Positions 14,050 through 55,421 of a stretch of 64,000 nt of DNA are shown here, piece by piece. Positions within the stretch are counted from its first letter, which is position 1; the number at the start of each line of letters is the position of its first letter. The stretch comes from Escherichia phage FL15. The notes under the pieces are model-generated. The model saw nothing but the letters and a program-made list of their open reading frames with translations, searched no databases and had not been told where the DNA came from. Location: the sequence record PP400778; one strand, given 5' to 3'. Both the position numbers and the translations under genes were made by a program.

Positions 14050-16809
14050 ATGGCAGATTTACAGAGAATCCAATTTAAAAGAACAAGTACGGCAGGTCGC
14101 AAGCCGGATGCGAATATTCTAACTCCGGGTGAACTTGCTATTAACCTAGCGGATCGAAAACTATATACAAAAGATGACAGCAATAATGTAATTACTTTGG
14201 GACACTTTCGCGGTGAGTTGCCATCTGATGCAAATTTAGATAATTATGGACCTACTGGTAAATTTACTGGCGTTTGGTCTAAATCAAGTTCAACAAATGC
14301 GCAGCCAGCAAATAAATTCCCAGAAGCGAATGCTGTAGGTGTATTAGAAGTATTTGTGGCTGGTCAATTTGCTGGCAGTCAGCGTTATACTGTTAGATCT
14401 GGTAACGTTTATATCCGTTCTTTGTCTGCGAAATGGAATGGTGTAGATGGTCCATGGGGTCCGTGGCTCAATATTCAAAATGGCACACGTCCACTATCAA
14501 CTACACTAGACTTGAATACTTTAGGTGATGCTTCTCATTTTGGGTTATGGCGAAATAGTTCAAGTTCCATTGCATCATTTTCTCGAAATTACCCAGAAGA
14601 AGGTGGTCTCGCGCAAGGTCTTTTAGAAATTTATGAAGGTGGTAACTATTCTTGCACGCAACGTTATACTACCCGAATGGGTGTTGTATATGTTCGTTGT
14701 CTTGCAGGTGCATGGGATCCAGAAGCTCCGAATTGGGGACCGTGGCAACAAGTAGGTATGGTTACTCCCAGCACATTCTATGACGGGGATCTTAATAATT
14801 TTCGTTCTCCTGGCTTGTATAACATTTTAGGGACTGATGCCGTTATTAACCGTCCAGTTGCAGAAGGTGTTCCGGTTGAGATGACCGGATTGCTTGAGGT
14901 TAAACAGCGTGCTTCCGGTGGCGCTATTTTCCAACGTTTCACTACCGCAGGAACGGGTGCAACTACGCGATCTCGCGTGTTTGAACGTGCAATGACAAAT
15001 AATATCTGGGGAAATTGGTACGAAGTATATACGTCCTATTCTATGCCAATTACTTTGGGTATGGGTGGTGTTAAAACTCAATTAGCGGAGCTAGATTGGC
15101 AAACATTTGATTTTGTTCCTGGTAGTATGTTTAGCGTTCCTTTGAACAAAATAAAGAACATGCCAGCAAATATGAATTGGGGTACGATTGACGGAGACTT
15201 GGTTATGTTTTCTGTCGGTCCTAGCGAACACACTGGCACAGGACGTACTGTTCAGGTTTGGCGTGGTACTGTATCCCAGACAAACTACCGTTATTTTGTC
15301 GTTCGTGTGTTCGGTAATTCTGGAAATAGAACTTGCACAGTTCGCCGTGTTGTTCTTGAAGATGGATCACATACTTGGACTGCTCAACAAAACTTTAGGG
15401 GATTGTTGAATATCACTGCTGCTGTTAATCTTGGTGCTAATCAGAAAATTTCACTTGCTCCAGGAGCATATATTCAAGCCCCTGCTAGCGGTTCTGGTTC
15501 TAATACTTACGCGAATCAGAATACTACCATTGCACCATTATATCAGGCCATTGACGATTCAAATAAAAACCAGTTTGCGCCAATTGTTAAACAGAAAAAC
15601 ACTGTAACAAATATTACTATGGCTTCTGGTATGGATATTGCTAGTTCAGAATATCGTATCGTTGCTCAGGGTGATTTATCCGCTACTGGAACTACAGCCA
15701 CTGAATTAGCTACATGGCGTTTCTTGCCGTCTGGCCGATTCATGTCACAAAGCCGAGTTTATGCTGGCGCAGCATTCTTGAACACTGATGGTAACATTGC
15801 TGGTTCAATCTGGAAGAAATACAACGATGCAACCAATTTAGATGCTGCCTTGAATACTCGCCTAGGTAAAGGCGGTGATACGATGACAGGTCGGTTAACA
15901 ATCAATGCACCTAATGATTCTATCGTATTATCAACAACTGCTAGTAATTCTTTGCATATTCGCGGTGACATAGACGGGACTGGTAACTGGTATATTGGCA
16001 AGGGTGGTGCTGATAATGGATTAGCGTTCTATAGTTATGCTACTAATGCTGCTGTAAACATTACAAACGCGGGGGATATCGCTCTAAGTCCAAAAGGCAT
16101 CGAAATGACTCATGTCAATAACGTTCGATTCTATGTTCATGGTGAACGTTGGACTGCTAGCCAATCTGGAGGTTGGAACGACCAATGGGGATTAGAAGCT
16201 CCGATATTTGTTGACCACGGCTATGTTGGACCAGACAGTTATTATCCGATTATCAAAGGAAGAAGTTTAATCACCAATCAAGGATATACAACTGCCGTCG
16301 ATTTTGGTCTACGTCGTGTCCCTAACAATTGGGGGCAAGCAATTATTCGTGTTGGATCTGCGGAAAACTCGCCAGCGGCTGGTCATCCTCAAGCTGTATT
16401 CGAGTTCCATCATGATGGTACTTTCTATTCTCCAGGTAATGGTAACTTTAACGATGTGTATATTCGTTCCGATGGTCGTCTTAAGATTAATAAAAAAGAG
16501 CTAGAAAACGGAGCACTTGAAAAAGTATGTCGACTGAAAGTTTATATTTACGATAAAGTTAAGTCTATTAAAGACCGTAGTGTTATTAAACGTGAAGTTG
16601 GTATTATTGCTCAGGACCTTGAAAAGGAATTACCGGAAGCTGTATCTAAAGTTGAAGTTGATGGATCTGATGTTCTGACAATTTCTAACTCTGCAGTGAA
16701 TGCTCTTTTAATTAAGGCTATTCAGGAAATGAGTGAAGAAATTAAAGAATTGAAAACGCCTCTCTTTACTAAAATTGCTCGCAAAATTAGTAAATATTTT
16801 AAATTCTAA
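14050..16809 (+). CDS. 37: long tail fibre distal subunit gp37 with C-terminal intramolecular chaperone domain
   Basis: 919 aa; N-terminus MADLQRIQFKRTSTAGRKPDANILTPGELAINLADRKLYTKDDS matches gp37; C-terminal ~100 aa (GIIAQDLEKELPEAV...ISNSAVNALLIKAIQE) resembles S74-type intramolecular chaperone. Confidence 0.9.
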   Translation: MADLQRIQFKRTSTAGRKPDANILTPGELAINLADRKLYTKDDSNNVITLGHFRGELPSDANLDNYGPTGKFTGVWSKSSSTNAQPANKFPEANAVGVLEVFVAGQFAGSQRYTVRSGNVYIRSLSAKWNGVDGPWGPWLNIQNGTRPLSTTLDLNTLGDASHFGLWRNSSSSIASFSRNYPEEGGLAQGLLEIYEGGNYSCTQRYTTRMGVVYVRCLAGAWDPEAPNWGPWQQVGMVTPSTFYDGDLNNFRSPGLYNILGTDAVINRPVAEGVPVEMTGLLEVKQRASGGAIFQRFTTAGTGATTRSRVFERAMTNNIWGNWYEVYTSYSMPITLGMGGVKTQLAELDWQTFDFVPGSMFSVPLNKIKNMPANMNWGTIDGDLVMFSVGPSEHTGTGRTVQVWRGTVSQTNYRYFVVRVFGNSGNRTCTVRRVVLEDGSHTWTAQQNFRGLLNITAAVNLGANQKISLAPGAYIQAPASGSGSNTYANQNTTIAPLYQAIDDSNKNQFAPIVKQKNTVTNITMASGMDIASSEYRIVAQGDLSATGTTATELATWRFLPSGRFMSQSRVYAGAAFLNTDGNIAGSIWKKYNDATNLDAALNTRLGKGGDTMTGRLTINAPNDSIVLSTTASNSLHIRGDIDGTGNWYIGKGGADNGLAFYSYATNAAVNITNAGDIALSPKGIEMTHVNNVRFYVHGERWTASQSGGWNDQWGLEAPIFVDHGYVGPDSYYPIIKGRSLITNQGYTTAVDFGLRRVPNNWGQAIIRVGSAENSPAAGHPQAVFEFHHDGTFYSPGNGNFNDVYIRSDGRLKINKKELENGALEKVCRLKVYIYDKVKSIKDRSVIKREVGIIAQDLEKELPEAVSKVEVDGSDVLTISNSAVNALLIKAIQEMSEEIKELKTPLFTKIARKISKYFKF

Positions 16810-16813
16810 CAAC

Positions 16814-16832
16814 AAGGGGCTTTGCCCCCTTT
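16814..16832 (+). terminator. stem-loop after gene 37
   Basis: AAGGGGC-TTTG-CCCCCTT hairpin; weak U-run. Confidence 0.3.
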
Positions 16833-16844
16833 GGAGTATAAATT

Positions 16845-17627
16845 ATGGCAGTAGTTGGAGTTCCTGGCTGGATTGGAAGTTCAGCCGTAAATGAAACGGG
16901 TCAGCGCTGGATGAGTCAAGCGGCTGGTCAATTAAGATTGGGTGTTCCTTGCTGGATGAGTCAATTTTCAGGTCGCTCGCGAGAAATTATTCACACGCTT
17001 GGCGCAGACCATAACTTCAATGGTCAGTGGTTCCGTGATAGATGCTTTGAGGCAGGTAATGCACCTATAGTGTTTAATATTACCGGTGATTTAGTATCAT
17101 ATTCTAAAGATGTTCCTTTATTCTTCATGTACGGAGATACACCAAATGAATATGTTCAGTTGAATATACATGGCGTAACGATGTATGGTCGTGGCGGGAA
17201 TGGCGGTAGCAATGGTCCTGGATCAGCCGGGGGGCATTGTATTCAAAATGATATTGGTGGGAGACTAAGAATTAATAATGGTGGAGCTATTGCAGGTGGC
17301 GGTGGCGGTGGCGGTGGCGGGTATTATTCTCCTTTTTCACAAATGAGATTAACCTTTGGCGGTGGCGGTGGGCGTCCGTTTGGTGCGCCCGGCGGATCTA
17401 TTGATATGCAATCAGGCGCAACTGCTGGTACTCTTTATGCGCCCGGATCGGGGTCCGTGAACGGTGTCTATAATGGCGGAAGCGGTGGTGAGGTAGGTGC
17501 TGCGGGAGGTAGATGTAATATTCGTGGTCAAGGATCTGAATATAATGGCGGCGATTCTGGATATGCTGTTATAGGGTCTTCTCCAACGTGGCAAAATCGC
17601 GGAGCTATTTACGGACCGGCTGTTTAG
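16845..17627 (+). CDS. 38: T2-type receptor-binding adhesin gp38 (glycine-rich motifs)
   Basis: 260 aa; N-terminus [15 protein letters not shown] and multiple poly-Gly islands separating variable segments are the T2/T6-type gp38 architecture. Confidence 0.85.
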
Positions 17628-20594: not shown

Positions 20595-20617
20595 AATATA
20601 ATCCTCACGTCAACAAC

Positions 20618-20905
20618 TTATTTTCGGTTGTGGTCACGATATGTTTTAAAATATCCCTCGTACCACGGTAAAATATCTGGATTTTTACCACTATACAGAC
20701 CTTTAACCATCATGTCAATAAGGCCATCTGGTGTTTGATAGTTTCCAGCTTTTATAAGCTCTCTGATTAAAATCTCTCTGTATATGTCTTTCGGATCTTC
20801 GTAATCAACTTGTATTGTGGTTGTTGTCTCGCTTAATTTGGTTTCTGGAGTATCTTGCATCGCCTTCCACCAATCTTTTGTAATCTTCATGTTATTGAAT
20901 TGCAT
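20618..20905 (-). CDS. hypothetical protein
   Basis: 95-aa ORF. Confidence 0.45.
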   Translation of the reverse strand: MQFNNMKITKDWWKAMQDTPETKLSETTTTIQVDYEDPKDIYREILIRELIKAGNYQTPDGLIDMMVKGLYSGKNPDILPWYEGYFKTYRDHNRK

Positions 20906-20916
20906 AATTTAACCTC

Positions 20917-21675
20917 TTACTTGCAAACGTATTGATCTACATCAATTGCTCCACCGAATGTAGGATGACGTTTTTCAAATCGAATAGTTCCGTCGTTTGG
21001 TTCGAAAACGGAGTATTCATATAGATCTTTCTTGCCAACATTCTTATAAAACCCGCCTTTAGTCATAACGGTTTCTTGTACGTTTGCTTTGTGTACGTTG
21101 TATTCATCAATGTATACAAAATCAACCATCTTCCCATTTTTAATGGTTACTTTAAGATCCCCTGGCTGGTTTCCATATTTTGCATACAGTGGAGCCTCTT
21201 TAATTTTTGTGGAAATTCCATCTTTCATACTCCACTCATAACGAACGGTGCATTGATAGGTAAAAGTTTCGACCTTCGGTTCTTCTACCACTTTTGCTTC
21301 CTGTTTCGGTTGTTCTTCTTCAACCTTCGCAGAAGTCTCTGAATCGCTTTCTGACGCGGTTTCTTCTTTAGGTAATACATTCATCAAGTTTTGGATTTGA
21401 GCGTTATATACAGCCTCCAGTGGCTGAATCTGCCCGATATTGATCATTGTATCACGAACAGTTTTATTCCAGTTTCGTTGCTCTTGTTTCAGAGACGGAT
21501 CAATCTTAACAGCCTTAACATACACCTCATGAAGTTTAGAGTCCAGTGCGGAGATAGACTCATTAGCACAAATAAACTTCTCTGATTTGGTAGTAGCTTT
21601 AGCGCAATCAAAGGACGCAGCGTTAGCACCGAAAGCAGTAGCAGAAAGAACGATAGCAGCGATAATGTTTTTCAT
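20917..21675 (-). CDS. secreted protein with N-terminal LprI-like (DUF1311) domain
   Basis: 252 aa; signal peptide MKNIIAAIVLSATAFGANA; then C-x10-E-x2-IC...LDSKLHEVY matching the DUF1311 Cys/Leu/Tyr pattern; Glu/Lys-rich linker; C-terminal domain unknown. Confidence 0.6.
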   Translation of the reverse strand: MKNIIAAIVLSATAFGANAASFDCAKATTKSEKFICANESISALDSKLHEVYVKAVKIDPSLKQEQRNWNKTVRDTMINIGQIQPLEAVYNAQIQNLMNVLPKEETASESDSETSAKVEEEQPKQEAKVVEEPKVETFTYQCTVRYEWSMKDGISTKIKEAPLYAKYGNQPGDLKVTIKNGKMVDFVYIDEYNVHKANVQETVMTKGGFYKNVGKKDLYEYSVFEPNDGTIRFEKRHPTFGGAIDVDQYVCK

Positions 21676-21699
21676 AATATATTCCTCAGTGTTTTGTCT

Positions 21700-21740
21700 T
21701 GATGGGAGTATCTTACTACTCCCTTAATCCGGTGTCAACT
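21700..21740 (-). promoter_or_regulatory. early promoter cassette with palindrome (PeSL-like)
   Basis: Minus strand GTTGAC (21734-21739), then palindrome GGGAGTA-N6-TACTCCC (21704-21723) enclosing a TAAGAT -10, upstream of ATG 21675. Confidence 0.5.
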
Positions 21741-21749
21741 ACTTTTAAA

Positions 21750-22010
21750 TTATTTTCGCCATTCACCGGAAACAATAAAGTTTGTAAAGTGATCGTGGTC
21801 CATGATAACGTCATTAAGTACCATATGCGGATATGCTTTAGTGTAATCACGTTTACGATCAGTCATCCAGCCAACGAAAGTTGGTGCAAAGTACGGTACA
21901 CCGTCAGACGATGCCATATTAAACCCTTTATCAACCATAAATGCAGCCGCCCTAAGATTTTTAATTGAAGTAGTGCGACTAATTTCAAAAACTTTATCGG
22001 TAAAATTCAT
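21750..22010 (-). CDS. hypothetical protein
   Basis: ORF; start at MNFTDK (ATG 22010) directly after the upstream stop. Confidence 0.5.
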   Translation of the reverse strand: MNFTDKVFEISRTTSIKNLRAAAFMVDKGFNMASSDGVPYFAPTFVGWMTDRKRDYTKAYPHMVLNDVIMDHDHFTNFIVSGEWRK

Positions 22011-22011
22011 T

Positions 22012-22221
22012 TTAAGCCCCCGCTCGTGCATTAATACGCATTTTCTGTATAGCCATGATCTGGTTTACTGCTTCTTCTTTACGTTCTTGCGTGATAATGT
22101 GACCAGATTCCGCAAACTCTCCAGCAACTTCTTCTACGATCTCGCGAACTTGAGAACGTCCAAAGATGCGGTTTCCTTCGTAGCTCATAAACTCTGTTAC
22201 TACTTGCTCGATAGATTTCAT
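22012..22221 (-). CDS. hypothetical small protein
   Basis: 69-aa ORF preceded by conserved leader AAAGGAGAATCAC. Confidence 0.5.
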   Translation of the reverse strand: MKSIEQVVTEFMSYEGNRIFGRSQVREIVEEVAGEFAESGHIITQERKEEAVNQIMAIQKMRINARAGA

Positions 22222-22244
22222 GTGATTCTCCTTTCGTTTGGTAT

Positions 22245-22280
22245 GGGAGTATCTTACTACTCCCTTATCTTTACGTCAAC
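22245..22280 (-). promoter_or_regulatory. early promoter cassette with palindrome (PeSL-like)
   Basis: GTTGAC (22275-22280) plus GGGAGTA-N6-TACTCCC palindrome (22245-22264), near-identical to the 21700 copy. Confidence 0.5.
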
Positions 22281-22529: not shown

Positions 22530-22559
22530 TTTATTTCCTCCAGTTCGTTTCGGTATGGG

Positions 22560-22592
22560 AGTATAATACTACCGATGACCTTTGGCGTCAAC
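22560..22592 (-). promoter_or_regulatory. early promoter cassette (PeSL-like, degenerate palindrome)
   Basis: GTTGAC (22587-22592), -10 TATTAT/TATACT inside GGGAGTATAATACTACC, conserved leader CCCATACCGAAAC. Confidence 0.45.
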
Positions 22593-22792
22593 TAGTTTTT
22601 TGTTATTTTCGTGAAATTTTTCGTCGCCTCATGTGCTTTTCGCTGGGCTTCTTGTTGTGCTTGCTGGCGTGCTGCCTCTTGCGATGTCATAACAGACGCA
22701 TTTGCAGCAGTTACAGCCGCGACCATCGCTGCGGTATTAGCATTTACCGTACATGCACTAGCCAGCAAAGCAATCGCAATCATTTTCTTCAT
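22592..22792 (-). CDS. small secreted protein (signal peptide)
   Basis: 66 aa; MKKMIAIALLASACTVNA signal-like N-terminus then Ala/Gln-rich mature part; AAAGGGGAA SD. Confidence 0.5.
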   Translation of the reverse strand: MKKMIAIALLASACTVNANTAAMVAAVTAANASVMTSQEAARQQAQQEAQRKAHEATKNFTKITKN

Positions 22793-23236: not shown

Positions 23237-23267
23237 CTTTGATTCTCCTTTTGTTTGGTATGGGTGT

Positions 23268-23296
23268 ATTATGCAATGCTGGATTATGGAAGTCAA
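23268..23296 (-). promoter_or_regulatory. sigma70-type early promoter
   Basis: Minus strand TTGACT (23291-23296), 17-nt spacer, CATAAT; leader ACCCATACCAAAC...GGAGAATCA conserved with other cassettes. Confidence 0.45.
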
Positions 23297-54670: not shown

Positions 54671-54904
54671 TTATTTTCCTTCTGGGATATAGTCGATGAT
54701 TAAAGAAAATTCATCTTCTGATACATTATAGCTATGTGAGATTGTACCCGTAAAGACCTCAAGATCCGGTGATTTGATATTGCACGGATCGATAATCACC
54801 GGAACGCCGCAATCTCTCAAAAATAATTTGGCGAAATACGGCACGAGGTCAGTTTCAAACTCTGCTTCTTCCAGCAAACGGGAAATGTTAATTTTCAATC
54901 TCAT
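54671..54904 (-). CDS. hypothetical protein
   Basis: 77-aa ORF directly downstream of gene 55. Confidence 0.45.
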
Positions 54905-55421
54905 AAAATTGGTCCAGGCTAGGCAATTCCTCGGTCAATACATCTTCAACCTTTGGCGCTTTCGGTTTATTGACCGATTCCTCGTAGTTGTTGATTTTAT
55001 CGTAAATGTCCTGTATGAATGCCTCATCAGCAATCTGGCACATATCAGCGTCGCGTTCGTCATATACATGATGCACAAAATATTTGTATTTTGCGGCTGT
55101 CGCTGTTCTCTCTTTTTTAATGCGCTGTACAAAAGCATTAAAGCACGCTTGCGTGATGTAAGCATGAGGATTTTTATACTTTGTCTCGTCAAAATTAATC
55201 AAACCCTTGACCGCCGCTTCGATTCCGTCGTCGATCATTTCTTCGCGCCATGTTTGACTATAACCAGAAAAGTTAAAACGACGTGATAGATTTTTAGAGA
55301 TTTGCATAATTGCTAGGCCGATTTGATCGCTCATTGGAACTTGCCGACCTTGTGCTGCAATTTGTTGTTTCCAACGGCAAATTTCTTCGTAAAGCTCTTT
55401 ATTGTTTACATAATCAGACAC
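54888..55421 (-). CDS. 55: late-transcription sigma factor gp55
   Basis: 177 aa; [66 protein letters not shown] match T4 gp55; GTG start with GAGGGTG SD. Confidence 0.95.

Follow-up and report, generated by a model that had tools for sequence, protein, structure and literature searches.

A predicted periplasmic DUF1311 protein of RB49-like phages carries a polymorphic C-terminal β-barrel behind a near-invariant N-terminal module

What use does a virulent T4-type phage make of a small, apparently exported protein with a DUF1311 domain, and why should the second half of this protein differ so much from one phage to the next? These questions are raised by a gene of Escherichia phage FL15 (sequence record PP400778), of which a stretch of 64,000 nucleotides (nt), hereafter the window, was analyzed. 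The window belongs to a Krischvirus, one of the RB49-like T4-type phages, and the gene is an open reading frame (ORF) of 252 amino acids (aa) that starts with ATG and occupies 20917..21675 on the minus strand. A sequence-only reading of the window had described its product as a secreted protein with a DUF1311 (LprI-like) N-terminal domain, and proposed that it acts as a superinfection-exclusion or lysis-timing factor analogous to Spackle of phage T4. That reading overlooked the second domain of the protein and its allelic variation, which is the most unusual trait of the locus. As outlined here, the protein very probably consists of two domains, the second of which behaves as an allelic cassette.

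The ORF delimited by the sequence-only reading does exist, on the minus strand, and is the ortholog of RB49p262 (99.6% identity), a hypothetical protein by annotation. Over the 1.9 kb that surround the gene, nucleotide identity is 99.5% with Escherichia phage FL37 and 97% with RB49, and the ORF is found in about 60 coliphage (Krischvirus) records. Because it is kept in so many records and has a low ratio of nonsynonymous to synonymous substitutions (dN/dS), it is not a chance ORF. The protein is assigned to PHROGs family 14799, function unknown, and two more PHROG families match it via its first ~130 or fewer residues only.

Residues 1-19 (MKNIIAAIVLSATAFGANA; 21619..21675, minus strand), delimited by hydrophobicity and the -3/-1 rule, have the features of a Sec-type signal peptide: a lysine at position 2, a single hydrophobic core at residues 4-15 (Kyte-Doolittle 2.47) and alanines at -3 and -1 (ANA/ASFDC), with cleavage by signal peptidase I (SPase I) predicted after A19. 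The cleavable-looking signal peptide noticed earlier is thus borne out by its individual elements. The 252-aa protein contains no further hydrophobic segment (the maximum Kyte-Doolittle value over 19 aa is 0.38) and no lipobox, and it is predicted to be a soluble protein exported via Sec to the periplasm. The AxA/ASFDC junction recurs in relatives from Klebsiella phage Marfa and Aeromonas phage CC2, i.e., in three phage genera.

The mature protein begins with a helical domain of the DUF1311/LprI type (residues 20-100, including Cys24 and Cys36; 21376..21618, minus strand). The Pfam profile PF07007 (LprI/DUF1311) matches residues 24-76 with 25.8 bits against a gathering cut-off of 22 (E 1.4e-5), so that the domain assignment made by the sequence-only reading stands above the curated threshold; the profile also matches all 15 of the 15 family members tested, and scores 22.4 bits in the Marfa relative and 28.4 bits in that of CC2. 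In these two relatives and in the window protein the match is partial, covering profile positions 1-71 or 1-72 of 106, and the last predicted helix (residues 83-98) lies outside it. Four conserved cysteines are part of the family description (quoted in PMC7933661); one pair of the two is present (C24 and C36), Cys142 and Cys251 belonging to the second domain. The motif from which the family had been recognized was correct in its second part (L44-D-x2-L-x2-V-Y52) and wrong in the cysteine spacing, which is Cys24-x7-Glu-x2-Ile-Cys36 rather than x10. In a fold test the domain is helical, like the DUF1311 crystal structure 3gi7, and AlphaFold2, run with the family alignment, models a helical bundle at residues 24-98 with a predicted local distance difference test (pLDDT) score of 70-77; a profile of the N-terminal module found no match among PDB sequences. 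The domain is basic, with an isoelectric point (pI) of 8.65. Annotation of the 252-aa protein as DUF1311 is already public, since UniProt entry Q7Y3G7 is so named, and RB49ORF260c was listed as DUF1311 with an E of 0.2 by Nolan et al. (2006).

A linker rich in Glu, Lys, Pro and Ser connects this domain to the second one (residues 101-134; 21274..21375, minus strand). It is acidic (pI 4.2 over ~30 aa) and disordered, with AlphaFold2 pLDDT values below 50 at residues 104-132. The second domain (residues 135-252; 20920..21273, minus strand) is polymorphic, and the allele found in the window is designated A1. Modeled alone with AlphaFold2, it forms an up-and-down β-barrel of eight strands (pLDDT 90; predicted template modeling score 0.82), in which the first strand bears Cys142 and the last one Cys251. 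Because the first and last strands adjoin in a closed barrel, a disulfide staple between C142 and C251 is likely on this model, and in the alignment of homologs only C142, G153 and C251 are invariant across alleles.

The presence of a small β-domain behind DUF1311 recalls LprI, in which the second domain is MliC; membership of the barrel in that family was examined at the level of both structure and sequence. Foldseek comparison with the PDB returned nothing at E ≤ 1e-3; the best matches, all weaker than this threshold, are the barrels of NHBA, FABP/lipocalin, fHbp/TbpB and Cap15, and MliC is not ranked. In the viral structure library BFVD, apart from the RB49 protein itself, the barrel clearly matches only a handful of small proteins from phages, of which one is annotated as a lipoprotein. 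A sequence profile of the barrel found no match among PDB sequences, including no MliC, PliC, ACP or PhiA chain, and among 1.84 billion representative proteins it retrieved only the family itself and repetitive low-complexity proteins. Conversely, the MliC profile (PF09864) gave no match at E ≤ 10 in 15 members. The inhibitor loops of MliC-type proteins are marked by the motifs SGxxY and YxxxTKG; neither motif is in register in the barrel, and nothing comparable is kept between alleles. The barrel is thus a lineage-restricted domain of generic fold, and its membership in MliC is not supported.

Comparison of the carriers separates a constant front from a swappable back. The N-terminal module is 92-100% identical in all carriers and residues 1 to ~128 are almost invariant, beyond which identity collapses. 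The same boundary appears in the DNA: among the window, Phi1, JSE and copies found in E. coli, identity stays at 90-100% between about -30 and about +385 of the ORF and then collapses, and the matches to E. coli end at ORF nt 371, 379 or 408, all in the linker-coding region, which thus holds the 5' recombination breakpoint (ORF nt ~371-408). Clustering of 37 sequences distinguishes 11 barrel alleles when the threshold is set at 80% identity, 8 when it is set at 55%, and 3 superclasses at 35%. Substitution rates, estimated by the Nei-Gojobori method, point the same way. In the N-terminal module dS is 0.07-0.20 and dN at most 0.018, phage versus prophage copies included (dN/dS about 0.05-0.1), whereas comparison of different barrel alleles with one another gives a saturated dS (at least 1.1, up to unbounded) and a dN of 0.43-0.97. 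Within barrel alleles dN/dS is 0.24-0.35, which together with the saturated dS between them argues that the alleles are functional and old. The pattern in these sequences indicates recombination rather than fast amino-acid evolution, with old alleles placed on a recently shared N-terminal module.

Where the cassette ends on its 3' side can be judged from the downstream gene, ORF261 (95 aa, cytoplasmic, PHROG 15915; 20617..20905, minus strand), the 5' end of which forms the 3' flank of the swapped segment. ORF261 is 48-76% identical among RB49-, Phi1- and JSE-type phages, and ORF260 is 100% identical. Judged from these alignments, recombination exchanges the barrels, among Krischviruses and the E. 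coli prophages described below, with one breakpoint in the linker and the other where the gene ends or ORF261 starts. Barrel alleles differ even between phages with 100% identical flanking genes. ORF261 was considered as a cognate partner of the barrel and rejected, since the alleles of the two assort independently: Phi1 and JSE are 76% identical in ORF261 and 22% in their barrels, and the IMG/VR contig L012 combines barrel allele A2 with an ORF261 of the window type (about 95% identical, by eye). In L012 the barrel has therefore been swapped on its own. No description of this allelic-cassette behavior was found in the literature searched. With at least eight barrels on one N-terminal module, the alleles offer a ready experimental series.

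An additional layer is provided by bacterial chromosomes. The N-terminal module occurs in 26 of 5,426 complete E. coli genomes, always chromosomally and with 94-96% nucleotide identity, and all 26 copies are annotated as intact coding sequences under the name "lysozyme inhibitor LprI family protein"; GTDB species representatives contain no copy. In the three genomes examined, the gene is the last one of a prophage that truncates hicB, beside hicA-yncJ. IMG/VR adds nine prophage contigs of 23-36 kb with the gene at their ends, plus two large Krischvirus contigs. Three prophage barrels are each nearest to a different Krischvirus superclass, EcH2 to that of the window (41%), EcO55 to that of Phi1 (46%) and EcE275 to that of JSE (52%). 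Behind the stop codon of the gene, two prophage loci retain a truncated ORF261 remnant of 25 codons (MKFNSMKITKDWWDAMKANHQNDIN, then a stop; L004 9774-9851 and L005 9789-9869) followed on its 3' side by an intrinsic terminator; the remnant is missing in a third locus, L002. Over 21 aa it matches the beginning of ORF261 from Krischviruses with 76-90% identity, the 90% being reached by L004 versus JSE. Because ORF261 is complete only in phages, the gene was most probably transferred from a Krischvirus-like phage to the prophage inserted in hicB. GC content is uninformative as to direction, the prophage end being as AT-rich as the phage. The N-terminal module and the start of ORF261 could have served as homology arms for later exchange of alleles. 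The prophage copy is flanked by a promoter-like site and a terminator with a 10-bp stem, and counts of such promoter-like sites are no higher than the shuffled expectation. Overall, the locus is suggestive of the recent passage of a gene from a T4-type phage, which is strictly virulent, to a temperate prophage with the cassette flanks kept, an event seldom seen so cleanly.

In the phage, the gene lies in a block of small minus-strand ORFs between holin gene t and gp52/rIIB, ~3 kb from t. A promoter scan identified immediately upstream a PeSL element (21704..21738, minus strand), i.e., a σ70-like early promoter overlapping a stem-loop. The promoter consists of TTGACA (21738-21733), a 17-nt spacer and TAAGAT (21715-21710), and is overlapped by a stem-loop at 21704-21723 with arms GGGAGTA and TACTCCC around a TCTTAC loop (GGGAGTATCTTACTACTCCC). 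A Shine-Dalgarno sequence, GAGG (21684..21687, minus strand), can be read 9-12 nt 5' of the ATG. A 25-mer of the PeSL is present in two identical copies, at 21702-21726 and 541 nt upstream at 22243-22267, and related copies at 22535-22564 and 23240-23269 are also seen, so that PeSLs precede successive small ORFs. PeSLs have been described in RB49 and Phi1 as early promoter/terminator cassettes and mobile regulatory elements (Arbiol et al., 2010; PMC2839356). Early expression of the 252-aa gene is predicted from its upstream PeSL, the activity of such elements being known from others of RB49/Phi1. The placement of the gene in the early region, as had been proposed, is therefore well founded in that it has its own σ70-type promoter with stem-loop within a hyperplastic early region.

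The surroundings of the gene are variable as well. Directly upstream lies a 93-aa ORF (PHROG 19692; 21750-22031, minus strand) that is missing in RB49, Phi1 and JSE, where a 51-aa ORF is found instead, and contig L012 (1920-2430) has the 93-aa ORF plus yet another inserted ORF of 71 aa. These upstream changes are gains and losses of whole ORFs, beside the intragenic swap in the 252-aa gene. Further along, a 66-aa ORF (22592-22792, minus strand) without PHROG or Pfam match begins with a sequence that fits the lipoprotein lipobox pattern (MKKMIAIALLASAC) and continues into an Ala/Gln-rich tail; it is a second candidate envelope protein of the same early block. Elsewhere in the window (14050-17627, plus strand), the C-terminal part of the distal long-tail-fiber protein gp37 and a 260-aa gp38-type adhesin are 88-91% identical in nucleotide sequence to Tequatrovirus (T2/RB14/HP3-like). 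This arrangement is shared with a few Krischviruses, namely MIZ4/5 (96%), KMB43 and LF73P4, RB49 being arranged differently there, and gives the impression that the receptor-binding tip was exchanged between genera. A link between barrel allele and adhesin type was considered and rejected: barrel allele A1 is carried by the window phage, MIZ4/5, KMB43 and LF73P4, whose gp37 tip and gp38 are of the Tequatrovirus type, and also by RB49, which lacks these.

What might a protein of this kind do? The DUF1311 family offers a lead. DUF1311 proteins with signal peptides are found as immunity genes beside lysozyme-like toxins of type VI secretion systems (T6SS; PMC9796082; PMC12135965), and Etsi4 of enterohemorrhagic E. 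coli, a weakly DUF1311-like protein that scores 18.7 bits for PF07007 where 22 are required, protects E. coli against the cell-wall effector Etse4, which is toxic in the periplasm (PMC12981562). At the level of the family this points to antagonism of peptidoglycan enzymes in the periplasm, a lead only. The term "lysozyme inhibitor" does not follow from it. In Mycobacterium tuberculosis LprI, which combines DUF1311 with MliC, the MliC domain is reported to suffice for lysozyme resistance, and ScwA (SL1344_0490) of Salmonella, a periplasmic, disulfide-bonded DUF1311 protein, confers no lysozyme resistance and instead raises the levels of MltD (PMC7933661). Because the DUF1311-only ScwA is inactive in this respect and the barrel is not demonstrably MliC, the label is not transferable to the phage protein, contrary to what the sequence-only reading implied, and the name "lysozyme-inhibitor LprI-like" given by NCBI and UniProt is unsupported by the literature for DUF1311 alone.

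The reading preferred here, with a probability of roughly 0.4, is that the protein protects the cell as a periplasmic binder, by superinfection exclusion or in the manner of an immunity protein. This reading best accommodates the early expression signals, the predicted periplasmic location, the conserved handle joined to a polymorphic barrel, and the capture and retention of the gene by a prophage. Synthesized early during infection, or constitutively in a lysogen, the protein would neutralize an attack on the cell that passes through the periplasm. As its target, the muralytic component of competing phages, e.g., a gp5-type tail lysozyme, or another peptidoglycan-degrading effector would be the foremost candidate. 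The conserved DUF1311 module would supply the constant function and the barrel the target specificity. A muralytic enzyme as target is a tentative suggestion, and that the protein itself inhibits a muramidase directly is doubtful. Retention of the gene by virulent phage, where it is early, and lysogen alike argues for protection of the cell rather than control of lysis. Of the two roles proposed by the sequence-only reading, exclusion thus gains circumstantial ground, as the gene is kept as terminal cargo of an E. coli prophage and RB49 lacks a detectable Spackle though its gp5 has a lysozyme domain, whereas lysis timing loses it, as rI is present and such a function is of no use to a lysogen.

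The background of RB49 is compatible with this reading. Its gp5 (RB49 65150-66952) contains a PF00959 Phage_lysozyme (GH24) domain, while its endolysin (RB49 54719-55108) is a Peptidase_M15_4 and not a T4-type lysozyme; because the endolysin is a peptidase, a periplasmic muramidase antagonist would not interfere with the phage's own lysis. Superinfection exclusion by T4 relies on Imm and Spackle, and neither sp nor imm is annotated in RB49. A tblastn search with T4 and Marfa Spackle detected no homolog in RB49 (162.6 of 164 kb), and in the window it gave a single weak match, inside gp41; just 3' of gp41, the site of sp in T4, the window has no Spackle-like ORF. The RB49 annotation yielded no further candidate that might take the part of Spackle, and the literature searched identifies no Krischvirus exclusion gene. 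The conserved, putatively early and periplasmic 252-aa protein is a concrete candidate for an exclusion role in Krischvirus.

Several observations weigh against a protective binder. ScwA, with DUF1311 but no MliC, gives no lysozyme resistance, and in LprI it is MliC that is credited with the inhibition (PMC7933661). The N-terminal module has no BLASTP similarity to Etsi4, and PADLOC returned no credible defence-family match for the protein, ORF261 or seven prophage neighbors. The 252-aa protein has no homology with Spackle (hhalign probability 0.2%), and Marfa possesses both Spackle and a two-domain DUF1311 protein, so that the roles of the two are probably not identical; the analogy with Spackle drawn earlier can thus be kept at the functional level only. 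Spackle binds a positively charged patch on gp5 (PMC7677548), and it seems unlikely that the basic N-terminal domain (pI 8.65) binds that patch in the same manner. Finally, in 24 Klebsiella (Marfa-like) phages the corresponding proteins are 78-100% identical over their full length, and their C-terminal domain is not polymorphic.

A broader proposition builds on the protective binder, namely a system of polymorphic immunity/exclusion proteins with a constant export and DUF1311 handle, a recombinogenic linker and interchangeable barrels, which would be a defensive counterpart of polymorphic toxins. This is a conceivable but rather unlikely generalization. If true, barrel alleles would be kept by frequency-dependent selection and traded directly between T4-type phages, which are virulent, and temperate prophages that share their host, and each allele would exclude or neutralize different competing phages or muralytic weapons.

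Among the alternatives to a protective binder, the one that survives best, albeit with low probability, is that the protein is a ScwA-like modulator of host wall enzymes which binds or stabilizes a hydrolase of the MltD type, and remodels or weakens the sacculus to aid lysis, burst or cell enlargement. ScwA itself is a soluble periplasmic DUF1311 protein that raises MltD and whose overproduction lyses cells (PMC7933661), and strong purifying selection on the N-terminal module (dN/dS about 0.05-0.1) would be expected for a conserved host target. However, this role leaves the many old barrel alleles unexplained, a lysis-promoting cargo is an odd one for a prophage to retain intact, and the architecture differs, DUF1311 being located at the C-terminus of a 275-aa helical protein in ScwA.

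Less probable still is that the gene is a host-fitness moron encoding a true lysozyme inhibitor in the LprI/MliC sense, which would shield the lysogen, and in passing the infected cell, from animal or environmental lysozymes or from T6SS or bacteriocin muramidases of competing bacteria, apart from competition between phages. The family name invites this idea, but the barrel has no MliC sequence signal, the inhibitor loops are missing and Foldseek does not rank MliC; moreover, it is hard to see what a virulent phage would gain, since its host is dead within the hour, and yet the gene is kept in about 60 Krischvirus records. To be held equally improbable is receptor masking from the periplasm, in the manner of T5 Llp or Cor, in which the barrel would bind an outer-membrane receptor and block adsorption or DNA entry, with alleles that track receptors. 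A predicted periplasmic, early and polymorphic protein would suit such a task, Foldseek ranks highest in the PDB the binding barrels of surface lipoproteins (NHBA, fHbp, TbpB) together with barrels of the lipocalin/FABP kind, and similar small barrels are found in other phage proteins, including the annotated lipoprotein in BFVD. Nevertheless, the protein has no lipobox and is not a lipoprotein, and its barrel allele does not go with the type of adhesin that the phage itself carries, A1 occurring both with and without the Tequatrovirus-type gp37 tip and gp38.

A lysis-timing factor, i.e., an antiholin partner or lysis-inhibition modulator acting on the periplasmic domain of holin T, is very unlikely: the periplasmic location and early expression, both predicted, and the distance of ~3 kb from t would fit, but RB49 already encodes rI, adjoining tk, the N-terminal module and related barrels are kept in prophages without a T4-type holin, and barrel alleles vary between phages whose flanking genes are 100% identical. 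Least credible of all is a polymorphic toxin-immunity pair of the contact-dependent inhibition (CDI)/Rhs type with the variable domain as toxin and ORF261 as immunity protein, because, although polymorphic toxins are characteristically built of a constant N-terminus and a variable C-terminus and ORF261 also varies between RB49-, Phi1- and JSE-type phages (48-76%), its alleles are unlinked to those of the barrel (L012; Phi1 vs JSE). In prophages, moreover, the gene persists although no more than a 25-codon stump of ORF261, or nothing of it, is left; ORF261 lacks a signal peptide, and the barrel has no catalytic signature and no toxin-family match.

Comparison with known systems places the protein among several of them. 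Like LprI, after which PF07007 is named, it is exported (here by prediction), has an N-terminal DUF1311 domain above the PF07007 cut-off and continues with a small all-β domain. However, LprI is a lipoprotein and the phage protein has an SPase I site without lipobox, the second domain of LprI is MliC (PF09864) whereas the phage barrel gives no signal for MliC in its sequence and resembles barrels only in a generic way, and the phage protein has one cysteine pair of the family's two. With ScwA it shares the nature of a soluble, periplasmic, disulfide-containing and horizontally acquired DUF1311 protein, as far as can be predicted. ScwA, in contrast, is an all-helical protein of 275 aa with DUF1311 at the C-terminus, no β-barrel and no reported allelic cassette, and its function has been assayed while the phage protein is known from sequence. 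DUF1311 immunity proteins (those of T6SS and Etsi4) resemble it in their signal peptide and in the proposed periplasmic protection from cell-wall toxins, but they are single-domain proteins encoded beside their toxin, and the phage protein is two-domain, phage-borne and without an adjacent toxin.

Relatives in other T4-type phage genera show the same kind of architecture. Marfa encodes a 252-aa protein (2501-3259 of L009) with signal peptide, DUF1311 domain, K/E/P-rich linker and an unrelated C-terminal domain with a cysteine pair, and has a Spackle homolog 2 kb away (144-425 of L009). CC2 encodes a 239-aa protein of like architecture (1974-2693 of L010), again with an unrelated C-terminal domain containing a cysteine pair. 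The proteins of Marfa and CC2 share the motif ASFDC.KA..K.E..IC in their DUF1311 domain.

T4 Spackle (gp61.3), like the phage protein as predicted here, is an early, Sec-exported protein with a small disulfide-containing helical module in the periplasm of a cell infected by a T4-type phage (PMC7677548); unlike it, Spackle is a single domain of 75 aa and highly conserved, to which the phage protein adds a polymorphic barrel. With regard to its genetics, the closest comparison is with the PeSL-flanked ORFan cassettes of RB49 and Phi1 (PMC2839356), a paper in which a term search found no mention of ORF261-263. As in those cassettes, the 252-aa gene is located directly behind a PeSL in a hyperplastic region, and the adjoining ORFs are gained and lost among relatives. 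What sets it apart is that here the 3' half of an ORF is swapped intragenically, and not a whole gene between PeSLs.

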